Assembly: GCA_965261035.1 (NCBI GenBank)
Contig: OZ253439.1
Location: 1,337,070-1,401,069, forward strand
From: Polaribacter sp.
Lineage (GTDB): Bacteria > Bacteroidota > Bacteroidia > Flavobacteriales > Flavobacteriaceae
DNA: 64,000 nt
Direction: 5' to 3'
In this document: positions 1,160-48,510 of the stretch, one piece after another
How the letters are laid out: each line of letters starts with the position of its first letter
How positions within the stretch are numbered: the stretch's first letter is position 1
The notes under the pieces: model-generated
Told to the model about the DNA's origin: nothing
The model's input: only the letters and a program-made list of their open reading frames with translations
Database searches by the model: none
Position numbers and translations under genes: made by a program

Positions 1160-1759
1160 TTAAAATTGCGATGTATTACTAACATTCGTTTTAGACTCAT
1201 CCGTAAATTTAATCTTCTTTCTAATTAACATAAATCTAATAATAAAAAAAAGTATTAGACATAATATCCCAAATAAAATTTTCCCATAAAAACTTTGTGG
1301 TTGTACTGAATCTAATGTTCCTGTATAGTCATCAATGTCTTCAGAAATAGTAGGATTTTTTGTTAATCTTGTTAATTCACCTAACTGTGGGTGATAAACA
1401 ATATTATCATCTGTAACTTGTCTATCATAAATTCTTTGTAAACTTTTTTCAGATAATGTATTAATTATACTTTCACTATTCTTCCATCTTTTAATAGGGT
1501 CTAATTTTTTTTCAATTTTAAGAATACCACATGAATTATTGTACTCAAATAATTTTCCATTTTTAAAAGTTACTGTAGATAATCCTTGTTTTCCATAACT
1601 CCAAACCTCTTCTTCTAAATATTGATAATTTTTTATTGATATTGGCTCTCCCATTACTTCTTTTACATCATTTTTTGATGAACCTATATTGATGTACCTC
1701 TGTGCATTTAGTATTGTAATACTAAAAATCGCTATTAATATTAAGATTGTTTTTTTCAT
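1160..1759 (-). CDS. Secreted hypothetical protein with BamE/SmpA-like N-terminal domain and C-terminal TM helix
   Basis: Signal peptide; IGSSKNDVKEVMGEP...EEVWSY pattern; hydrophobic segment ILFGILCLILFFII. Confidence 0.6.
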   Translation of the reverse strand: MKKTILILIAIFSITILNAQRYINIGSSKNDVKEVMGEPISIKNYQYLEEEVWSYGKQGLSTVTFKNGKLFEYNNSCGILKIEKKLDPIKRWKNSESIINTLSEKSLQRIYDRQVTDDNIVYHPQLGELTRLTKNPTISEDIDDYTGTLDSVQPQSFYGKILFGILCLILFFIIRFMLIRKKIKFTDESKTNVSNTSQF

Positions 1760-1869
1760 TGTTTAACTTATTTAAAATTTATTATTATAGTCTAAATTTT
1801 CTTCTAATATTCATCATTTTCTCGTTATCCGCCTGAAATTGTTCTTGAGATATTCCACGGGAGTGTCAT

Positions 1870-2400
1870 TTAATTTACGCTTATTGAATTCAAGAATTTG
1901 TCCTTCTCTGATTTTGAGGTCTCATTATCAATTAAATACCAACACTCAAAATTTACTAATTTATCTCTGACTAATAGCATTACAAAAAATCGTTTACCTC
2001 TAACACCATTTGCAGGATTAACAGCACTGTATTCTACTTTTCTTCCACGATATTCACTTATTTTTATCTCACTACTCCTTGTATATTTATTTCCTGTGTA
2101 ATCTACTTTTCCTTTCACAGCATTATCCAAAAAAGAATCCTCGACTTCTTTAATTTCTGATTGTGTCCATTTTTTCTTAGCTATTACATATTGATGATAG
2201 TTTGGTATAACTCTTAATACTAATGTCATAAAAAAGCAATTTTTCGTCTTTCCTACATAAGAAGTGCCTTGTGTATTAGTTTTATATTCTGGATAAATTG
2301 GAAATGTTACGAATAAGCCGTTCTCTACTTCTTTTTTAGTTTGACCAAAAATCAATGATGTTGTTAATATCATTAGAAGAATTATTAATTTTAGTCTCAT
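1870..2400 (-). CDS. Secreted hypothetical protein (PsbP/DUF1795-like fold possible)
   Basis: Signal peptide; beta-rich pattern ending KDKFLNSI. Confidence 0.55.
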   Translation of the reverse strand: MRLKLIILLMILTTSLIFGQTKKEVENGLFVTFPIYPEYKTNTQGTSYVGKTKNCFFMTLVLRVIPNYHQYVIAKKKWTQSEIKEVEDSFLDNAVKGKVDYTGNKYTRSSEIKISEYRGRKVEYSAVNPANGVRGKRFFVMLLVRDKLVNFECWYLIDNETSKSEKDKFLNSISVN

Positions 2401-2407
2401 TTTTTCG

Positions 2408-2452
2408 TTTTTTGTTTGTCCTTAGCTCGAGAGAACGTTAGTTAGAGCCGTT
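2408..2452. repeat. 45-bp direct repeat, copy 1
   Basis: ttttttgtttgtccttagctcgagagaacgttagttagagccgtt; 44/45 identical to 4429..4473. Confidence 0.9.
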
Positions 2453-2472
2453 GTGATTATTTTAGATTGAAA

Positions 2473-2676
2473 TTATAATTCGTTATCCCATTTTATTTTG
2501 GGTTTCATGCAATAAATCCAGATCATTGCTATAGTTGGTATTATAAATCCAAGAAAGCTCCAAATATCAGTATTTCTATTTAGTCGTTCTGCTTTTTCCG
2601 AACACACTACCACACCAATAACCCTATAAAATAAGGATATTATAATTATTGCTAATGATTCTTCCTCATCTGTCAT
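2473..2676 (-). CDS. Small two-TM membrane protein
   Basis: 67 aa, two hydrophobic segments, AERLNRNxxxWSFLGF motif; overlaps the upstream gene by 4 nt. Confidence 0.6.
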   Translation of the reverse strand: MTDEEESLAIIIISLFYRVIGVVVCSEKAERLNRNTDIWSFLGFIIPTIAMIWIYCMKPKIKWDNEL

Positions 2677-3065
2677 TTTTTATTTGATTTAAAGATAATC
2701 TTTAGTTCCGTTATAGCTCTTTCTTCTAATTCTTTTAGCTTTTTCCAATTCCTTTTATTTTTAGAAATTTCTTTAGAAATTTCATCTGCTTTCATTTTCA
2801 GTTCTTTGTTTTGAAATCTATCTGGATGACAACTTCTAATCAATTTTTTGTATAAGTCTTTTGACTTATTTATGTCGTTCATTACATCGTCCATAATATT
2901 GATTTTAGGCTCTTTTGTGTTTAGATTTTTATTTAATTTTAGAAATAAAAATACAATGATTGCAAATTCCACTAATGCAACCCAAAACCATATTGAGAAT
3001 GATATTGAATCAGTGTTTGATGAGCCTAAGCTATCTATTTTAGTTTGTAATAAAATGTTTTTCAT
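2673..3065 (-). CDS. Membrane-anchored J-domain (DnaJ-like) protein
   Basis: TM segment WFWVALVEFAIIVFLF followed by YKKLIRSCHPDRF (HPD motif). Confidence 0.7.
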   Translation of the reverse strand: MKNILLQTKIDSLGSSNTDSISFSIWFWVALVEFAIIVFLFLKLNKNLNTKEPKINIMDDVMNDINKSKDLYKKLIRSCHPDRFQNKELKMKADEISKEISKNKRNWKKLKELEERAITELKIIFKSNKK

Positions 3066-39049: not shown

Positions 39050-41917
39050 TTATGCTTTTGTTGCTGCATCTAAAGCAGCAACAGCTAAGGCTTTATACTT
39101 ATCTGCAAGACCAATAAGCTTTATTATTTCAGCATCCATAACTTTTAACTCTTGTTTAAGTACCCATATAAGCTCTGTCATTGCAACTATATTAATCTTA
39201 CCGTTAAGAACAGCTTTTTTTCCATTTACTAGATTGCTAGTTGCTGTTACAAGATTTTGCTCAGCAGCATCTACATCTGCTTGTAAATTTCTGGCAGGAA
39301 TAGTTATTAACCTAGATGCGTTAAGATATTCAGTCTTAATAATTCTCAAAGATATTCTTTTCGCTATTAAGAGGCTCTTCTTATACTCAAGGGCTTCAAT
39401 CTCAGCCTCAATTACGTTAATACTAGATACTAACTCACTAACCCCTTCTACATTTGAAGCCGATTCTATCTCTTTCTCTAAAGCTGTAAGTTTAGCAGTA
39501 TTACCAGCTATTTTAGCAGCAAGTGTAGCGATGTCAATACCTGATAATTTAATATCAAGTTCTATCTTTTCTTTTGTTCGGAAATTAGCTTTAGCAGCTT
39601 TAGCAGCATTTACAGCAGAATTACTTACAGCATTTTTTTTAGTTGTTATCATTGCTTTAGATGTCTTTAAAATACTATCTTTATCAACTGTATCTGATGT
39701 TTTAATCCCAATTACTTTCAGTGCATTGATAAAAGCAGTTTCTTTAGCTTTTAGAGTAACTCCTTTATTGTCAACAAGTAATCCGTCAAATTTATTAACT
39801 TTAGCTCTAAGTTTTTCCTCAGTAGCACTACGATCAGCTAATGACGCTTTTGCTTTGTTTAATTCAGTAATAGCTGCATCTAATTCTACAACAGCTACAT
39901 TAAATCTAGTAACATTCAACTCATCAGGAGTAGGGTCTCTATCATCAGCTTCAACATTATAGAGTTTACCTATACTACCAAGATTCGTTAAAGAAGTAGC
40001 AGCCTCAATGGATCCAAAATCAGCTACTATATCACCAAGTGTAAACTTGACAGCAAGAACTGTTGGGTTTATCGTTGCAGGAGTCTTAATAGGGAAGTCA
40101 GGACTTGCTGCGGTTTTGTCAAAAAAGAATTGCTCTGTTTCAAATGTTACTTTCTTCTTTCTTACACCATCAACAAGAGGGAAAGTTACATCTTTAATTT
40201 TTCTATATGTAACTTTTACAGCGTCAGCGCCAGTGCCTTCCATAGTGGCGTCAGTAATATTACCCGTCACACCATCAGGACCTGCAAAAACAGAAGGACC
40301 TGCAGGCTCAGCATCATAGATCTTTTTTAACGTGTCATGCTTTTTTCGGGCATCTGCTTCAGTCTTTCTTATACCTTCTATATTAATTCTAGCTGCTATA
40401 TGAGTTTTTAGTGCGTTAGTAGCATCCTCTAAACTATCTAACAATCCGCCAACATCCTCTTTTAAAGCATTATACGCCTTTCTTTTAGCTTCAGCAGTAT
40501 CATGATTTCCTTTTTTGGTGGCAACAGCAGCTTTTTCTTTGGTAATTTTAGCATCTAATTTACCTAACTCTGCATCATAGTCTGCTAAAGTTGTACTATC
40601 AGTCTTTACAGACTTTTTTTTGCTATTGTATAAAGCTGAGTCTGTCTTAATAAGACCAGCCAATCTATCATACTTTGTACGTAAAGCATCAGTTTCAGTT
40701 AATTTATTTAACTTTTCTACTTCAATAGATTTCGTGTTTTCCTTTGACCCTATATTTATTTCCTCTAAATGCACCTTTATTCCAACTTGTACTATACTGT
40801 CGTCGTATTCTTTAACACGTGCATCAAATTCTGCTTTTTGAGTAACAACTTCGTCAGTTTCATGAGCAACTTTAGCAGCTTTAGCAACTTGTACTCCAAC
40901 TTCTGCAGCTGCTTTTAAACCTTTTAGCAGAACTAAGGAAGCTTCAGCTACAGCTGAATCTATTTTACCCTCAGCTAACATTCTTGATTGCTCAGCTAAC
41001 ATTTCTGCTCTTACTTTTCTCGTAACCAATTTGGAAGCAGCCACTTTTCTAACAGCTATGTACTGATCAACTAGACCCTCTGCTACTGCAAAACCAGCTG
41101 CTCTAAGATCATCTGCGTGTAGCTGTTGAGCTTCTAGCAATTCAAATTCTGCTCTTGCTACATTAATAGCCGTTTGAGCGAGTACATCTGCAGCATTTGC
41201 CGCCCGATTTGCAGCATTTGCTTTCTCAAGTTCAGCCTTTGCCTTCTCAAGGTCAGCCTCCGCTCTTACTTTTGCTGCTGCAGCTTCTGCGGCTGTCATA
41301 TTACTGGCAGTTTCAGAAACTATCCTTGCAATCTCCGCTTCTGCTTTATTTACTGCAACTTCTGCGGCTGCTATATTACTGGCAGTTTCAGCAAGTATCC
41401 TTGCAACTTCCGCTCTTATTTTTTCTGCTGCAGCTATTGCGGCTGCTGCATCACTGCTAGTTTTAGAAATTATCCCTGCAACCTCTGCTCTTACTTTTTC
41501 TGCTGCAGCTATTGCGGCTGCTGCATTACTGGCAGTTTCAGCAAGTATCCTTGCAACCTCCGCTCTTACTTTTGCTGCTGCAACCTCTGCGGCTGTAGCA
41601 TTACTAGAAGTTTCAGAAGCTATCCTTGCAGCATGTGCTTTCTGAACTTCGGCATCTGCCGCTCTAAGATCGGCTTCCGCCTTTTTAAGAATGGCTTCTG
41701 CCCCTTTAAGAGCGGCTTCCGCCGCTTTAAGAGTAGCCTCTGCTTGATTTACCGTAACTTGACTAGCAAGAAGGTCAGCTTGACCTTGGTAAATCTTTTT
41801 AATTTCTGGTGAAACTTCGCTATCTATACAAGATACAAAGCTACCACCAAAAATGATAGCTACTAATAGTGCTACCAAAAATCTGTTCATTTTGTTCATT
41901 TTGTTCATTTTGTTCAT
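39050..41917 (-). CDS. 955-aa Ala-rich coiled-coil surface lipoprotein (BT1927 S-layer-like)
   Basis: Lipobox FVSC then IDSEVSP; long heptad helices around a central non-helical domain; directly upstream of a BT1926-like barrel gene. Confidence 0.75.
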   Translation of the reverse strand: MNKMNKMNKMNRFLVALLVAIIFGGSFVSCIDSEVSPEIKKIYQGQADLLASQVTVNQAEATLKAAEAALKGAEAILKKAEADLRAADAEVQKAHAARIASETSSNATAAEVAAAKVRAEVARILAETASNAAAAIAAAEKVRAEVAGIISKTSSDAAAAIAAAEKIRAEVARILAETASNIAAAEVAVNKAEAEIARIVSETASNMTAAEAAAAKVRAEADLEKAKAELEKANAANRAANAADVLAQTAINVARAEFELLEAQQLHADDLRAAGFAVAEGLVDQYIAVRKVAASKLVTRKVRAEMLAEQSRMLAEGKIDSAVAEASLVLLKGLKAAAEVGVQVAKAAKVAHETDEVVTQKAEFDARVKEYDDSIVQVGIKVHLEEINIGSKENTKSIEVEKLNKLTETDALRTKYDRLAGLIKTDSALYNSKKKSVKTDSTTLADYDAELGKLDAKITKEKAAVATKKGNHDTAEAKRKAYNALKEDVGGLLDSLEDATNALKTHIAARINIEGIRKTEADARKKHDTLKKIYDAEPAGPSVFAGPDGVTGNITDATMEGTGADAVKVTYRKIKDVTFPLVDGVRKKKVTFETEQFFFDKTAASPDFPIKTPATINPTVLAVKFTLGDIVADFGSIEAATSLTNLGSIGKLYNVEADDRDPTPDELNVTRFNVAVVELDAAITELNKAKASLADRSATEEKLRAKVNKFDGLLVDNKGVTLKAKETAFINALKVIGIKTSDTVDKDSILKTSKAMITTKKNAVSNSAVNAAKAAKANFRTKEKIELDIKLSGIDIATLAAKIAGNTAKLTALEKEIESASNVEGVSELVSSINVIEAEIEALEYKKSLLIAKRISLRIIKTEYLNASRLITIPARNLQADVDAAEQNLVTATSNLVNGKKAVLNGKINIVAMTELIWVLKQELKVMDAEIIKLIGLADKYKALAVAALDAATKA
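41255..41629 (-). repeat. Five tandem 75-bp (25-aa) repeats
   Basis: Units start at 41629, 41554, 41479, 41404, 41329; consensus ARILAETASNAAAAxAAAEKVRAEV. Confidence 0.9.
41882..41917 (-). repeat. 9-bp tandem repeat at the start codon, (ATGAACAAA)3 ATGAACAGA
   Basis: Encodes MNKMNKMNKMNR. Confidence 0.92.
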
Positions 41918-41978
41918 TTTGTTACTATTTAATTAATGTTTAATATTCTTTTAGTTATAATCCTATAAACTATCGGGA

Positions 41979-41986
41979 CAAAACTA
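41979..41986 (-). promoter_or_regulatory. -7 element TAGTTTTG for the lipoprotein/barrel locus
   Basis: Consensus match about 60 nt upstream of the ATG. Confidence 0.6.
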
Positions 41987-42281
41987 CATATATAATTTCT
42001 TTCTGACAATGAAAAAACTAAAAAAAAAACGTTTTTTTAAAAAAAATATTTACAAATTCGTATAATAGCCTTATAATCAGCTATTTGTAAGCAACTATTT
42101 TTTGTAATTATTTTAGTTTTTATGTGTTTAAAAGGCATTTTGTCTCTATTAATTAGGTATATAGTTAGGTATTTATACAAAAAACAGAGCGTTTTTAGTC
42201 TGTATTTTGGCATAAATAAGTAAAAATTGGAAGTTGGAAGTTAAAAATTGAAAGTTTCTAACTCTTTCCAACCTCCAATTT

Positions 42282-43952
42282 TCAATTTCTCATCCCAACA
42301 GTTTTATTAAAGATTAGTTTTTCTGATGTAGAATCGTTATCTACATTAAAATATCCCAAACGCTGAAACTGAAATCGGTAGCCAACTTTTGCTGTTTTCA
42401 AACTTGGCTCTACAAAGGCGTTAATCACCTGCAAAGAGTTTGGGTTTATAAACTCCATATAATCCTTATCTTTATGTCCGTCGGGAGCTTCATCAGAAAA
42501 CAGACGGTCATATATTCTAACTTCAGCAGAAATACTATGTTTTATGGAAACCCAATGTAAAGTTCCTTTTACTTTGCGTTTGCTTTCTTCTGTGCCACTT
42601 CCCGACTTTGTTTTAGGGTCATAAGTACAATGAATTACAGTAATATTACCGTTCTTATCTTTTTCTACGCTGTTTGCCGTGATAAAATAGGCGTTTTTTA
42701 AACGAATCTCCTTGCCTAATTTTAATCGGAAGAATTTTTTATTGGCTTCTTCTCTAAAATCTTCACGTTCTATATAGATTTCACCAGAAAAAGGAACTTC
42801 TCTAAACCCCGAATTTTTATCTTCAGGGTTGTTCTCGGCGATTAAAATTTCTTCTTTATCTTTTGGATAATTATCTATCACAACTTTTACAGGGTCTAAA
42901 ACCGCCATAACTCTGTTGGCTGTTTTGTTTAAATCTTCACGGATTTTAAATTCCAATAATGCTACGTCAATTACGTTTTCACGTTTAGAAACTCCGACGG
43001 TTTCAATAAAATTTCTGATAGATGCAGGCGTATAACCTCTTCTACGCAATCCGGAGATAGTTGGCATACGTGGGTCATCCCAGCCGTTTACGATTCCTTG
43101 CTCAACTAATTTTAACAACTTTCGTTTACTCATTATAGTATAGCTCAAATTTAATCGAGAAAATTCGCGTTGTTTTGGAGCCAAAGGATATTCAGATTTA
43201 CTATACCTATATATATTGTTACGAAACCAGTTATATAATTCCCTGTGAGGCTTAAACTCTAAGGAACACAAAGAGTGCGAAATTTGCTCTAAATAATCAC
43301 TCTCCCCGTGTGTCCAATCATACATTGGATATATACACCAATCCGTTCCCGTCCTGTGATGTTTTTTGTGCATAACGCGATACATTAAAGGGTCGCGGAG
43401 CAACATATTTGGCGAAGACATATCTATTTTTGCTCTCAAAACGTGTTTACCTTCTTTAAAATCTCCATCTTTCATACTTTTGAACAGCTCTAAGTTTTCG
43501 GCAACTGCTCTATCTCTAAAAGGGCTGTTAGTCCCTTTTGTTATCGGAGTTCCTTTCTGTATCCTCATCTCTTCGGATGTTTGGCTGTCCACATAAGCCT
43601 TTCCGTCCTTTATTAATTGTATAGCCCAATCAAATAATTGCTGAAAATAATCAGAAGAATAAAGTTCATTTTCCCATTTATATCCTAACCAAGTAATATC
43701 ACGTTTAATTGCATCTACATATTCCTGCTCTTCCTTTGCTGGATTTGTATCATCAAAACGCAAATTGACAGGAGCATTGTATTTTTGCCCTAAACCAAAA
43801 CTAATTCCGATAGCTTTTGTATGACCAATATGTAAATATCCGTTTGGCTCTGGTGGAAAACGAAAGCGTAGATTTTCTTTCAGCATTCCGTTTGATAAAT
43901 CTTCCTCAATAATCTGTTCTAAAAAGTTGAGCGATTTTTTTTCTTCCAGCAT
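42282..43952 (-). CDS. glnS: Glutamine--tRNA ligase
   Basis: RFPPEPNGYLHIGH, MSKRKL, FQFQRLGYF. Confidence 0.96.
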   Translation of the reverse strand: MLEEKKSLNFLEQIIEEDLSNGMLKENLRFRFPPEPNGYLHIGHTKAIGISFGLGQKYNAPVNLRFDDTNPAKEEQEYVDAIKRDITWLGYKWENELYSSDYFQQLFDWAIQLIKDGKAYVDSQTSEEMRIQKGTPITKGTNSPFRDRAVAENLELFKSMKDGDFKEGKHVLRAKIDMSSPNMLLRDPLMYRVMHKKHHRTGTDWCIYPMYDWTHGESDYLEQISHSLCSLEFKPHRELYNWFRNNIYRYSKSEYPLAPKQREFSRLNLSYTIMSKRKLLKLVEQGIVNGWDDPRMPTISGLRRRGYTPASIRNFIETVGVSKRENVIDVALLEFKIREDLNKTANRVMAVLDPVKVVIDNYPKDKEEILIAENNPEDKNSGFREVPFSGEIYIEREDFREEANKKFFRLKLGKEIRLKNAYFITANSVEKDKNGNITVIHCTYDPKTKSGSGTEESKRKVKGTLHWVSIKHSISAEVRIYDRLFSDEAPDGHKDKDYMEFINPNSLQVINAFVEPSLKTAKVGYRFQFQRLGYFNVDNDSTSEKLIFNKTVGMRN

Positions 43953-43985
43953 TCTCCTTTTTTAATATAAGCAAGAATTATTAAT

Positions 43986-44330
43986 TTATTTTACTTTCTC
44001 TACAATTGTTTTAAAAACTTTTGGGTCGTTCATAGCTAAATCTGCTAAAACCTTACGGTTCAGCTCTATGTTATTAGCTTTAATTTTTCCCATAAATTGA
44101 GAGTAAGACATTCCGTACTGACGAGCCCCAGCGTTAATACGCAGAATCCATAATGAACGGAAATTTCTTTTATTGTTTTTACGGTCACGATAAGCATAAG
44201 TCATCGCTTTTTCTACCGCATTTTTTGCTACTGTATAAACGTTTTTTCTACGTCCGAAGTAACCTTTTGCTTGCTTCAATATCTTTTTTCTTCTTTTTCT
44301 TGAAGCCACTGAATTTACTGATCTTGGCAT
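43986..44330 (-). CDS. rplT: 50S ribosomal protein L20
   Basis: MPRSVN, AKGYFG, RINAGAR. Confidence 0.98.
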
Positions 44331-44444
44331 AATTCAAAATTGTTTTTTTGTAGTAGGCGATTAACTAATTCTTAAATTGTAATTCAAAAACAGTAATTCT
44401 TGTTAGCCCACTACACGGTTAATAATTAAACTCTATTTAATTAA

Positions 44445-44642
44445 CTATTTTAAAGCTAATTGCTGTTTGATGTTTTTAGCATCAGACTCGTGTACTAATG
44501 TAGCGTGTGTCAATCTAAGCTTTCGCTTTTTAGACTTTTTTGTCAAAATATGACTTTTAAACGCATGCTTCCTCTTAATCTTTCCTGAACCAGTAAGTTT
44601 AAAACGCTTTTTGGCACCAGATTTGGTTTTCATTTTGGGCAT
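44445..44642 (-). CDS. rpmI: 50S ribosomal protein L35
   Basis: True start [14 protein letters not shown] at 44642; SD-like AGAAGGAG upstream. Confidence 0.97.
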
Positions 44643-44671
44643 CTCTCCTTCTTTTTTATCTTGCTTATTAT

Positions 44672-44813
44672 TTTCTTTTTCTGCAAGGTTTTTGAAACCT
44701 TGCAAATATTTATTTTACTTTCTTAGGAGCAATATACATAATCATACGTTTACCTTCTAACTTTGGTAATTGCTCAACTTTTCCGTATTCTTCTAATTCT
44801 TGGGCTAATCTCA
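44672..44813. repeat. 142-bp direct repeat (second copy of the infC 3' end and downstream hairpin)
   Basis: Identical to 45228..45369 except for the 3-nt hairpin loop. Confidence 0.95.
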
Positions 44814-44814
44814 T
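44710..44814 (-). pseudogene. Duplicated infC 3' fragment (34-aa ORF)
   Basis: [34 protein letters not shown]. Confidence 0.85.
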
Positions 44815-44853
44815 AAAAAGATTAGATTTTTTTTTGACACATAATTTTTGTTA

Positions 44854-45084
44854 CTAATTTTTCTTAAAAACTCTAAATCTATACTTTACCCCATAAAATG
44901 GAATGAATGATTTAAAAATTTCTTTCCAACTATATTTTAAATACTTCATCCTTAAAATAGTTACTGTTGGGATATAAAAAATAACTAAGTAAGGTAAAAT
45001 ATGAGTAGGAAATTTATGAGGGTAAAAACTACCTAGAACAATAAAAGGGACAAAAAGTACGATTAAATATACTATTCTATTCAT
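44854..45084 (-). CDS. Small membrane protein (immunity-like)
   Basis: 76 aa, two hydrophobic segments, basic aromatic tail. Confidence 0.65.
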   Translation of the reverse strand: MNRIVYLIVLFVPFIVLGSFYPHKFPTHILPYLVIFYIPTVTILRMKYLKYSWKEIFKSFIPFYGVKYRFRVFKKN

Positions 45085-45094
45085 ATATCAATAT

Positions 45095-45211
45095 TTAGTA
45101 AAAAGTTGCAGAAGCAGCACAACCAAGTGCAATACCAGCGGCACATTCTGGTCCAAATGCAATGCATGCTAATCCCGCTTTTGTTAAAATTATTTTGTTT
45201 TTGATGCTCAT
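45095..45211 (-). CDS. 38-aa Cys/Gly/Ala-rich peptide
   Basis: MSIKNKIILTKAGLACIAFGPECAAGIALGCAASATFY*; below ORF-track cutoff. Confidence 0.5.
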   Translation of the reverse strand: MSIKNKIILTKAGLACIAFGPECAAGIALGCAASATFY

Positions 45212-45227
45212 AACATAACTTGTTTAC

Positions 45228-45369
45228 TTTCTTTTTCTGCAAGGTTTCAAAAACCTTGCAAATATTTATTTTACTTTCTTAGGAGCAATATACATAATCA
45301 TACGTTTACCTTCTAACTTTGGTAATTGCTCAACTTTTCCGTATTCTTCTAATTCTTGGGCTAATCTCA
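45228..45369. repeat. 142-bp direct repeat (copy overlapping the intact infC 3' end)
   Basis: Offset 556 bp from the other copy. Confidence 0.95.
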
Positions 45370-45826
45370 ATAATAGAATTTGCCCCTGTTCTTTAAAAAT
45401 TATAGACCTTCCTTTAAAAAACACAAATGCTTTTAGCTTAGCACCGTCTTTCAAAAACTTAACAGCATGTTTCTTCTTAAATTCATAATCGTGTTCATCT
45501 GTTTGAGGTCCAAAACGAATCTCCTTAACAGTAACTTTTGTAGCTTTAGATTTTAAAACCTTATCACGTTTCTTCTGTTCGTATAAAAATTTCTTATAAT
45601 CAATAATTTTGCAAACAGGAGGAACCGCCTTTGGAGATATTTCTACCAAATCTAATTCTTGCTCGTTAGCTATTTGTCGAGCTTTTTCTATTGGATAAAC
45701 TCCAACTTCAACATTATCGCCTACCAAACGCACTTTATCAACAAATTTAATCCTATGATTAATTCTGTGTAAATCTTCCTTGATTACTCTTAAAGGTCTT
45801 CTCGACCTGCTTCTTCTAATTGCTAT
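45266..45826 (-). CDS. infC: Translation initiation factor IF-3 (non-AUG start)
   Basis: Frame open upstream of the track start ([23 protein letters not shown]); ATA at 45826 or ATT at 45820; no in-frame ATG. Confidence 0.93.
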
Positions 45827-45861
45827 GACTCATAAAATTTAAATTAAACAAATTTATTACA

Positions 45862-47787
45862 TTAAAGTTTTACTGACTTTTGTATCAAGGAAATAAATTC
45901 TTCAGTAGTAAATACTCCTAAATCTCCTTTACTATGCTCTCTTACAGATACCGTTCCTTTACTTTCTTCCTTTTCTCCGATAATAATCATAAACGGTATT
46001 TTACTAACTTCTGCATCTCTGATTTTTCTACCAGTCTTTTCATTTCTATCATCTATCAAGCCGCGAATTTCGGAATTTTCTAGCAATTCTAAAACTTTTT
46101 CTGAATATTTTTGATATTTTTTACTGATTGGAAGTAAAATAACCTGCTTAGGAGTTAGCCAAAGAGGAAAATTGCCTCCCGTATGCTCCAGCAATACAGC
46201 GATAAAACGCTCCATAGAACCAAATGGAGCTCTGTGAATCATAACAGGTCTGTGTAATTGATTATCTGCTCCTTTATAATGCAAATTAAAACGTTCTGGA
46301 AGATTATAATCTACCTGTATTGTTCCTAATTGCCATTTTCTGCCTAAAGCATCTTTCACTATAAAGTCTAATTTAGGTCCGTAGAAAGCTGCTTCTCCTT
46401 CTTTAATTGTATAATTTAAACCTTTATCTTTTGCTGCATTTATAATAGCAGCTTCGGCTTTATTCCAAGTTTCAACATCACCTATATATTTATCTAGGTC
46501 GCTCATATCTCTGACAGAAACCTGTGTTGTAAAATCTTTAAAACCTAAAGAACCAAATACGTACAGAACTAAATCTATAACGCTCTTAAACTCCTCGTCT
46601 AATTGTTCTGGTGTACAAAAAATATGTGCATCGTCTTGCGTAAATCCTCTTACACGAGTTAGTCCGTGCAATTCACCACTTTGTTCATACCTATACACGG
46701 TTCCGAATTCTGCAAAACGTTTAGGCAAATCTTTATACGAATAAGGTTTAAAATTATATATTTCACAATGATGCGGGCAATTCATAGGTTTTAACAAAAA
46801 CTCTTCGTCCATTTTTGGAGTTTTTATCGGCTGAAAACTATCTTCACCATATTTGGCATAATGCCCAGAGGTAACATACAATTCTTTCTGTCCGATATGT
46901 GGTGTTATCACCATTTCGTAGCCAGCTTTCTTTTGAGCTTTTTTCAAAAAATCTTCCAATCTATTGCGTAAGGCAGCACCTTTTGGCAGCCATAAAGGCA
47001 GACCAGAACCTACTTTCTGTGAAAAAGTAAATAATTCTAACTCCTTGCCTAACTTTCTGTGGTCGCGTTTTTTTGCTTCTTCTAATAATTCTAAATATTC
47101 GGTAAGCATCTTTTGTTTCGGAAAAGAAATGCCGTATATACGTGTTAATTGATTATTTTTTTCATCGCCACGCCAATAAGCTCCAGCTACATTTGTGATT
47201 TTTACTGCCTTTATAATTCCCGTATTAGGAATATGTCCGCCACGGCATAGGTCTGTAAAATTGCTGTGGTCACAAAAAGTAATATCTCCGTCATCTAAAT
47301 TTTCAATCAATTCAACTTTGTATCCGTTATTTTCCTTTTGATAAAAAGACAGCGCATCAGATTTAGAAACTGAACGCAATTTGAACTCATATTTCCCTCT
47401 AGCTAATTCTAAAAATTTCTTTTCTATTTGTAAAAAATCTTTTTCAGAAATCACTTTATCACCTAAATCAATATCGTAATAGAAGCCGTTTTCAATGGCA
47501 GGACCGATAGTCAATTTCGCATCCGGATAAAACTCTAAAATTGCCTGTGCCAAAACATGTGCAGAAGAATGCCAGAATGCTTTTTTCCCATCTGCATCGT
47601 TAAAAGTGTATAAAATTAGCTTGCCGTCTGTCGTCAAAGGAGTAGAAGTTTCTACCGTTGTACCATTAAAATTGGCAGAAATAACGTTTCTTGCAAATCC
47701 TTCACTGATATTTTTAGCAACGTCCATAGGCGTGCTGTTTTGATTAAACTCTTTAATGCTTCCGTCGGGCAGTGTAATATTAATCAT
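45862..47787 (-). CDS. thrS: Threonine--tRNA ligase
   Basis: [26 protein letters not shown]-type [21 protein letters not shown]. Confidence 0.98.
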
Positions 47788-47874
47788 TAGTTAATTTTTA
47801 ATAAGCGGCAAAGGTAAGGTAAAAGTTGAGAATTACGATTTGATAATTCAACAATTACACAATTTATCAATTAA

Positions 47875-48510
47875 TCAATTAATCATCTGAAATATAGCCA
47901 ACGCATATACGATAAAACGCAAAAAACGAAATAAACCAAATAACAAAACTCCTTTCAGAGGGTATTTAATCAAGCCTGCCGCCATACAAGTAATTGAAAA
48001 TGGAATTGGGAGCAAAGCTCCAACGATAATTAAGAATCCTCCCCATTTACTCGTATTTTTTAGGTGTTTCGTCATTTTTGTTTCCAAATAATTTTTAACT
48101 GCGTAAATTTTTAGTGAAACTTTACCAATAAAAAAGGAGATAATTCCGCCAATATAAGATAGTGTTGCTAATATTGATAGAGTGATAACAGGTTCGGAAG
48201 TTTTTTTAGACCAAGCGATAAAAATTTCTGGAGGTATCAATCCTAAAATAGATTCTGAAACAAAGAAAATAATCAAAATAGCTACTTTAGAAAACGTTTG
48301 AGTAATGTTTTGTAATCCGTCATTAATGTCATAAACGAATTTGTTAAACAAAAATAATCCAACCACAAGAAGTATTACCGGTATAATAGCTTTCTTTATA
48401 CTCTTTGTAATAAATTTGTAAAAGCCTGTGTACAAGTAGTATTGGTATAATAATTTTGTTCTAGATTTCTTTTTAGACTTTTTTTTCGGTTCTATTTTTT
48501 TTTGCTTCAC
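47875..48510 (-). CDS. DedA/YqaA (VTT domain) membrane protein
   Basis: SESILGLIPPEIF, ALLPIPFS, RFLRF. Confidence 0.8.
   Translation of the reverse strand: MKQKKIEPKKKSKKKSRTKLLYQYYLYTGFYKFITKSIKKAIIPVILLVVGLFLFNKFVYDINDGLQNITQTFSKVAILIIFFVSESILGLIPPEIFIAWSKKTSEPVITLSILATLSYIGGIISFFIGKVSLKIYAVKNYLETKMTKHLKNTSKWGGFLIIVGALLPIPFSITCMAAGLIKYPLKGVLLFGLFRFLRFIVYALAIFQMIN

Follow-up and report, generated by a model that had tools for sequence, protein, structure and literature searches.

A probable decayed copy of a lipoprotein and partner-gene module between infC and rpmI in a Polaribacter species

How two small open reading frames (ORFs) came to lie between infC and rpmI, within the thrS-infC-rpmI-rplT operon of a Polaribacter species, is the question raised by the DNA analysed here, a stretch of 64,000 nucleotides (contig OZ253439.1 of assembly GCA_965261035.1, positions 1,337,070 to 1,401,069 of the forward strand) to which we refer as the window. 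Every gene of the operon lies on the minus strand in the ORF list, and the two ORFs are carried by a unique segment of 414 bp (44814-45227) enclosed by direct repeats. Pairwise alignment reproduced to the nucleotide the repeat coordinates given by a first-pass annotation made from the sequence, 44672-44813 and 45228-45369, the two 142-nt copies being identical save for a 3-nt hairpin loop; in a repeat search of the window the same pair emerged as a direct repeat of 154 nt with 95% identity (44668-44821 and 45224-45377). The native copy, R1 (45228-45369, minus strand), holds the last 34 codons of infC, the stop codon, a hairpin and GAAAAAGAAA, while the distal copy, R2 (44672-44813, minus strand), adjoins the ancestral rpmI leader (ATAAGCAAGATAAAA..GGAGAGATG). 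In the 2.76-Mb genome the repeat occurs in these two copies only (BLAST E=2e-66) and the insert is single-copy. We consider it rather likely that the insert descends from a two-gene module as a decayed and promoterless copy, that it arrived by a single illegitimate insertion and that it leaves an orphan immunity-type partner gene expressed by read-through.

One further ORF created by this arrangement has to be set aside. R2 starts with A|TGAGATTAG, and the last A of the insert completes the ATG of a 34-aa C-terminal fragment of initiation factor 3 (IF3) at 44710-44814 (minus strand), as the first-pass annotation had rightly seen; the fragment matches Pfam IF3_C with E=3.2e-7, below the cutoff, and TIGR00168 with E=8.5e-6. 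It is a junction artefact and not a gene, and should be read as an annotation warning.

Repeats of this kind carry a general risk of misassembly, which is all that speaks for a collapsed or chimeric repeat. Against such an artefact, both insert junctions are crossed by a single Logan contig (44784-45280 or 44784-45257) in four runs from three studies, and in the two runs with interpretable depth (X2 and X5) the repeat core (44695-44813) stands at about twice the flank depth and the insert at flank depth. Moreover, three independent metagenome contigs encoding an identical L20 show the same spacing and gene order, and the genome itself was assembled as a single contig. An assembly artefact is hence effectively refuted and the insert is real. 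Of these three metagenome contigs, the first matches the window throughout the region, the second has the loop of the native copy flipped and the third that of the distal copy, the latter being flipped in run X6 too. In the window the hairpins of R1 and R2 are exact reverse complements, i.e., one loop is flipped relative to the other. The loops (44692-44694 and 45248-45250 of the window; L057, L059 and X6) thus come in three haplotypes, (TTG,CAA), (CAA,CAA) and (TTG,TTG), a pattern that would fit one inversion of the palindrome loop followed by gene conversion between the copies.

Is the insert particular to this species? The relatives search covered 41 genomes, and in 22 other species of the genus as well as in 16 genomes from different genera of the order the infC and rpmI matches abut or overlap with no insert, the gap between the two genes measuring 20-150 nt. 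At the six junctions that we read, the infC stop is followed by a variable spacer of 20-150 nt, often with small palindromes, and then by the conserved rpmI leader, ATAAGCAAGATAAAA.CGAAGGAGA-ATG; within the genus the spacer is highly variable in both length and sequence. As R2 adjoins exactly this conserved leader, everything between is an insertion on the lineage leading to the species, which bears out the earlier view of an insertion into the operon. Among conspecifics, the insert is carried by every strain and run examined, including at least three metagenomic strains, and it is fixed in the species. No empty site was found in any conspecific strain or run, rare excision being invisible in Logan contigs because the repeat is longer than the assembler k-mer, and a search through L35 for a closer empty site returned as its only match a contig with the insert. 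The first-pass annotation had made much depend on whether relatives all share the arrangement with no empty site: this holds among strains and fails among species, 38 of which lack the insert. As to the spacer hairpin (45238-45260, 10-bp stem), its palindrome family, CCTRCAAGGTTTT.AAAACCTTGYAGG, numbers about 11 copies, with 11 genome sites such as C1:430168, 995823, 2146556 and 2304830, and in congeneric species the infC-rpmI spacer contains palindromes of other kinds. The hairpin was considered as a mobile attachment (att) or repetitive extragenic palindromic (REP) site driving the insertion, an idea dropped as this family is unlinked to other inserts.

What, then, does the insert encode? 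Its larger ORF, at 44854-45084 on the minus strand, specifies a 76-aa protein with two hydrophobic segments and a net charge of +11, for which only three homologues (68-78% identity) exist among 5.8 billion proteins, and a scan of 185,579 species genomes detected no relatives of the family. In three loci (L036, L037 and L038), the homologue lies 13 nt 3' of a lipoprotein-like gene of 230-234 codons, whose last 26 residues (GLACIAFGPECAAGTALGCAAAATFN) correspond to the C-terminal 26 residues of the smaller, 38-aa ORF of the insert. When the window DNA is aligned with L036, homology sets in precisely at the G-LACIAFGPEC codons and extends to the stop codon that closes the 76-aa gene. In addition, all four close full-length lipoprotein genes (P0005-P0008, 46-57% mutual identity) are followed 10-13 nt downstream by a 75-81-aa homologue. 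Judged from homology and synteny, the lipoprotein gene and its 76-aa-type partner are a conserved two-gene module with a patchy distribution in Flavobacteriaceae.

The full module comprises a leader of about 150-180 nt, a lipoprotein of about 170-240 aa with a hydrophobic, Gly/Ala-rich, four-Cys, three-helix C-terminal tail, and, 10-13 nt further 3', a basic protein with two transmembrane (TM) segments. A profile search of 1.84 billion representatives gathered the lipoprotein family into 96 clusters at 50% identity, mostly of 200-250 aa, which share a lipobox and the tail GWW..W..C(V/I)...M.DG...G..GL.C.AFGP.CA.G...GCA, this tail being the most conserved part; a few of the clusters, e.g. P0067, are tail-only orphan ORFs. 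In an AlphaFold2 model of the lipoprotein (pLDDT 82), a linker connects an alpha+beta domain at the N-terminus to a hydrophobic unit of three helices at the C-terminus; Foldseek found no match to the model in the PDB (best E=0.04, TM<0.25). Likewise, Pfam and NCBIfam returned no significant match for the 38-aa ORF, the 76-aa ORF, the lipoprotein or its tail, the family tail reaching no more than Sublancin at E~0.1. No full-length member of the family is present in the organism's own genome. In run X3 (record 6), a low-depth contig of 419 nt matches window positions 45150-45183 over 34 nt, at the GLACIAFGPEC codons, and is unrelated beyond them; its source may be a different organism or strain of the sample with a full-length lipoprotein gene.

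Set against this full module, the insert retains 60 nt of the leader, of which the 5' two-thirds are missing, the last 26 codons of the lipoprotein gene and an intact partner gene, followed by a 40-nt tail (44814-44853, minus strand) that has no homology to other module loci and ends at the blunt right junction. The smaller ORF (45095-45211, minus strand; representative P0082) is chimeric: 12 leader-derived codons precede the 26-codon relic of the lipoprotein C-terminus (45098-45175) and a stop. Its first part, ATGAGCATC, falls within the leader, in a part that has no coding role in L047 and L077, where 'GTTATGAGCAT' is likewise non-coding leader sequence. Because the ORF begins in this normally non-coding leader, we read it as an accidental fusion, probably a junction artefact rather than a gene, which an internal deletion from the middle of the leader to about codon 208 of the lipoprotein gene would have produced. 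The two small ORFs announced by the first-pass annotation are both present, and what falls away is an independent pair of peptide and partner.

It might be argued that the pair is nonetheless a working bacteriocin operon, in which the 38-aa ORF would specify an active, hydrophobic peptide with Cys residues and the 76-aa protein would be its partner for immunity or export. The 38-aa ORF is indeed intact in all strains, its last 26 codons evolve with a ratio of nonsynonymous to synonymous substitution rates (dN/dS) of about 0.05 relative to full-length genes, the protein library contains another tail-only ORF (P0067), and a helical, hydrophobic tail is predicted. However, the first 12 codons stem from a leader that is non-coding elsewhere; the ORF has no signal peptide, no lipobox and no double-glycine leader, and neither such a leader nor a family match marks it as a class II bacteriocin precursor. 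It also lacks the first tail helix and the first of the four conserved tail Cys, and in L039 the equivalent relic is frameshifted next to an intact partner gene. Taken together, we regard a working two-gene bacteriocin operon as unlikely. The partner gene conforms better to an orphan toxin-fragment and immunity arrangement: the fragment is the 3' end of a full-length gene, homology runs up to the partner stop, and the partner is syntenic with the full-length genes, intact and constrained (dN/dS 0.15-0.27 against its homologues). Orphan partner genes occur elsewhere as well, in L039 with the frameshifted relic and in L040 with no relic. The partner would thus be an immunity-type protein directed against the bacteriocin-like tail of the lipoprotein and kept as an orphan, and such retention under constitutive transcription of the operon is its most likely function. 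Expression of the 76-aa gene would come from thrS-infC read-through or from a promoter within the duplicated infC end; that the cargo rides on an essential transcript, as first proposed, is most plausible, no promoter block of its own being detectable.

The origin of the insert becomes clearer through its leader remnant. This first stretch of about 60 nt (segB, 45173-45236, minus strand), which holds the ATG of the 38-aa ORF, is 88% identical to sequence found just 3' of rpsM in the same genome, where a further 5' segment (segA) is present; segA recurs just 3' of atpA. Other segB-like BLAST matches in the genus were chance matches within unrelated genes. Together, segA and segB align with the stretch that precedes the lipoprotein gene in L036, L042 and L047 and with the one that precedes the orphan in L040, defining a non-coding leader of about 150-180 nt, …GTTATGCCACATTAAAA..ATAACGGTCAAAAATGGACTGACCATCCAAARTCGG…GAAAATCGAAAGAGTA (loci L036, L042, L047, L040 and L072-L101), that extends across Flavobacteriaceae genera. 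This leader heads modules in four metagenomic loci; a scan for its exact core pattern added 11 Flavobacteriaceae genomes, including Bizionia, Psychroflexus and Urechidicola, with the exact core in 2 of 401 evenly sampled genomes of the family, and a BLAST survey of 150 other species in the genus counted one to five leader copies in 10 of them. The modules that it heads are very diverse; nearly all pair a small TM protein with a lipoprotein whose hydrophobic tail is rich in Gly, Ala and Cys. One case departs from this: at +103..+556 from a leader remnant in L097 (genome G139), a 60-75-aa peptide (…LNQMELIEGG|DMACAMS…) with an apparent double-glycine leader, whose best Pfam matches, Bacteriocin_IIc (E=0.06) and MccV (E=0.09), are both sub-threshold, accompanies a 79-aa TM protein.

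The leader is conserved mainly in primary sequence. Apart from the expected S4 leader, neither it nor the infC-rpmI region gave a match in Rfam, and RNAalifold recovered a weak hairpin 1 only; a structured RNA is unconvincing, hairpin 2 being backed by one compensatory change and one wobble. Free-standing copies share, just upstream, GTTATGCCACATTAAA and the motif CGCAAC-N15-16-CGTTA, which we take to resemble promoters of extracytoplasmic function (ECF) sigma factors. In L098 and L100 (genome G108), an IS3-family element (ORFs of 131 and 285 aa) replaces this promoter-like block at the same point upstream of the leader. The leader could conceivably be, in a weaker version of the adapter reading given below, a new cis-regulatory element, an ECF-type promoter with a conserved 5' untranslated region, of a Flavobacteriaceae bacteriocin regulon.

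When a profile of 15 leader sequences was run on the organism's own genome, the rpsM and atpA copies were its only matches, and the infC remnant is a third leader-derived piece. All three pieces are devoid of the promoter-like block and start at nested points of the leader. Between rpsM and rpsK (C1:2574109-2575249; L029 ~1625-2750, minus strand), an insert of about 1.1 kb stands in place of the 11-80 nt seen in relatives, 38 of which lack it, and carries an apparently frameshifted lipoprotein-like ORF and a thioredoxin-like CGYC protein. In another strain (L104:2876-4691), identity is 99.6% up to the end of the leader and resumes, at 99.3%, 71 nt before rpsK, while the cargo in between is entirely different, consisting of a 223-aa lipoprotein with a Cys-rich tail and a 283-aa Rce1-like/CPBP protein of the abortive infection (Abi) type. 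The Rce1/CPBP family is linked to bacteriocin self-immunity. Comparison of the two strains shows this to be a variable cassette slot within the ribosomal protein cluster. Between atpA and atpG (C1:63390-67028; L102), 3.6 kb replace the 35-90 nt of relatives: the insert opens with the 5' part of the leader and holds toxin/immunity-like ORFs, small signal-peptide proteins, a 423-aa HExxH protein, a second fragment ending in the same ...NGNK(A/I)CQ motif and a multicopy repeat of about 400 nt. This slot is the same in another strain (L106:2513-6000), where the 423-aa HExxH gene is intact; in the genome under study a CAA>TAA nonsense change splits it into 341+80. The repeat, of about 400 nt, resembles a miniature inverted-repeat transposable element (MITE) and has eight to nine copies of 94-97% identity, one within the atpA|atpG insert (C1:66489-66899) and others at C1:40488, 183671, 648703, 1404532, 1416219, 1736670, 2295780 and 2347356; related copies (79%) exist in another species (G017).

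In sequence terms, the infC insert is the smallest and most decayed of the three leader-headed inserts, which share no 3' element. On inspection, all three slots proved to have no integrase ORF nearby; rpsM|rpsK has no flanking duplication, and none was noted at atpA|atpG. One could imagine that the leader acts as a portable 5' homology arm or adapter, by which promoterless bacteriocin/immunity cassettes are captured and swapped, integrase-free, in the spacers of essential, highly expressed operons (atpA|atpG, rpsM|rpsK and infC|rpmI) whose housekeeping transcription they would borrow; we give this only a small chance. An origin of the promoterless cassettes by cDNA or retro-insertion was rejected, the atpA copy keeping sequence upstream of the presumed transcription start.

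How did the infC insert enter? The first-pass annotation saw in the repeats an attL/attR-like scar of a reduced island or of a Campbell-type insertion that can be excised precisely, and a small mobile element integrated in this manner, or site-specifically, would have R1 and R2 as its borders and move as a 556-bp unit. Such an element would explain why identical 142-bp direct repeats flank an insert absent from other species, and the ancestral site would be regained exactly if the two repeats underwent homologous recombination. Yet the ORFs in 41000-48000 are an S-layer-like gene, glnS, rplT, rpmI, the cargo, infC, thrS and a TM protein only, with no integrase, transposase or other recombinase gene; the genome has no second copy of the insert, which is present in every strain and run examined, at flank depth where depth is interpretable. 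The sister leader inserts came without flanking duplication (rpsM; none noted for atpA), and the right junction has no shared core. A mobile element is accordingly improbable, the att reading finding neither enzyme nor recombinase core and the reduced island no counterpart, as neither a gene nor a larger island occupies the infC-rpmI site in any relative checked. Of precise excision, it stands that the identical repeats could in principle recombine; an active process is unsupported.

The joints themselves are of two kinds. The left one lies in AAAAAGAAA, which is common to the ancestral spacer and the leader, and the likeness extends to the hairpins, the spacer hairpin (GGTTTTTGAAACC) followed by AAAAAGAAA resembling the second hairpin of the leader (…ATTTTGAAACGAC…) followed by AAAAAAGAAA. 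The right joint is blunt, with 6/10 matches in AT-rich sequence. On the reading that we prefer, entry would have occurred once, in the ancestor of the species, by illegitimate recombination, either as a template switch guided by microhomology or as a single crossover to the same effect. Replication or repair would have switched at the microhomology from the spacer into a leader-bearing template and copied about 400 nt, and a return joint 142 bp upstream in the chromosome would have duplicated the infC end and preserved the native upstream context of rpmI.

This last point invites another explanation, namely that the duplication is kept for cis elements in the 3' part of infC (an internal promoter or an L20 operator-like element) that rpmI-rplT need, so that only insertions restoring the context are viable. 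The infC gene of Escherichia coli contains both the L20 operator and the promoters of rpmI. R2 does put 142 nt of native sequence back directly upstream of the conserved rpmI leader, where it may be necessary for viability, and sigma-70-like matches occur in both repeat copies. These matches, however, come from a promoter scan barely above shuffled expectation, and Bacteroidota promoters differ from the consensus scanned; Rfam, moreover, gave no L20-leader or other match, and infC-rpmI spacers vary greatly, in length as in sequence, from species to species of the genus. We therefore hold retention for cis elements to be rather unlikely.

Several points weigh against a decayed module with an orphan immunity-type gene. 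First, the mechanism is not reconstructable from one end-product, and a Campbell crossover of a small circle bearing R and the cargo would give the same structure. Second, no significant Pfam, NCBIfam or PDB match supports a toxin role for the lipoprotein or an immunity role for the partner, and the putative assignment of both derives from gene architecture and context. Third, the partner (68-78% identity) is better conserved than the lipoproteins (46-57%), which is unusual for immunity proteins of diversifying toxins. Fourth, the low dN/dS of the 26 relic codons means either that the truncation came late, measured against the split from the genes used for comparison, or that the peptide is still functional. 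Finally, the run search found no RNA sequencing runs carrying the locus.

Known systems help to place the module. Polymorphic toxin loci, such as those of contact-dependent inhibition (CDI; cdiA-CT/cdiI) and Rhs, have orphan modules of a C-terminal toxin part (CT) and its immunity gene. The insert is akin to these in that a 3' fragment of a toxin-like gene precedes an intact small partner gene, relics at varied stages of decay are scattered across genomes, and conserved sequence is found where modules are exchanged. By contrast, conservation here falls on the C-terminal tail and on a non-coding leader at the 5' side instead of on a pre-toxin motif upstream of a variable CT, the genome has no parent locus, the toxin and immunity functions are putative, and the orphan sits within an essential translation operon and not downstream of a toxin locus. 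With class II bacteriocin/immunity pairs, including the bacteroidetocins of Bacteroidota, the module has in common a Gly/Ala/Cys-rich hydrophobic four-Cys moiety, a small membrane protein encoded immediately downstream, a double-glycine-leader peptide in one leader-headed module of the genus, and the thioredoxin-like and Abi/CPBP genes of the sister cassettes. It differs in that the moiety is the tail of a lipoprotein of about 220 aa and not a double-glycine-leader peptide of 40-60 aa, with no adjacent ABC transporter/peptidase gene and no significant match to a bacteriocin family. Bacteroidetocin loci carry no immunity gene (Coyne et al. 2019, PMC6671954). Assignment to the bacteroidetocins was rejected, as there is neither a double-glycine leader nor an ABC transporter, and a literature search for bacteriocins in Tenacibaculum brought up nothing relevant.

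Integron cassettes offer a second parallel, with promoterless cargo under an upstream promoter, conserved cassette-boundary sequence and, at rpsM|rpsK, strain-alternative cargo at one slot, whereas here an integrase is missing, the 3' ends of the cassettes carry no attC-like imperfect palindrome, and single slots in three housekeeping operons take the place of an array at attI. As to the route of entry, Campbell integration and tandem duplication with templated insertion, by microhomology-mediated template switching, likewise bracket the insert with a duplication of the target and join it by one microhomology and one blunt joint; they differ in that no vector-like circle or donor copy is identifiable here and that the event is old enough for fixation in the species.

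Around the insert, the host operon is complete on the minus strand. Its first gene, thrS (45862-47787), is a 641-aa ORF for threonyl-tRNA synthetase, homologous contigs of which give TGS, tRNA_SAD, tRNA-synt_2b and HGTP_anticodon Pfam matches. It is followed by an intact infC for IF3 (45266-45826; Pfam IF3_N 6.7e-26 and IF3_C 1.9e-31), which probably starts at an ATA or ATT codon near 45826. Beyond the insert, rpmI (44445-44642) encodes the 65-aa L35 (Ribosomal_L35p, 5e-27; gene calls in L059 and L103) and rplT (43986-44330) encodes L20 (Ribosomal_L20, 9.5e-46).

Few stretches of bacterial genomes are as syntenic as the essential operons for translation and ATP synthase. Leader-headed cassettes in three such operons, with variable cargo at one of them, are a more interesting result than the infC insert by itself. 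The analysis has also brought to light an uncharacterised module of a lipoprotein and a small membrane protein (about 96 clusters), headed by a strikingly conserved non-coding leader for which Rfam has no family. That related accessory cassettes interrupt three of these operons in one species, one slot being strain-variable, shows that cargo can be accommodated there, and a simple way for orphan defence or immunity genes to become constitutively expressed suggests itself.

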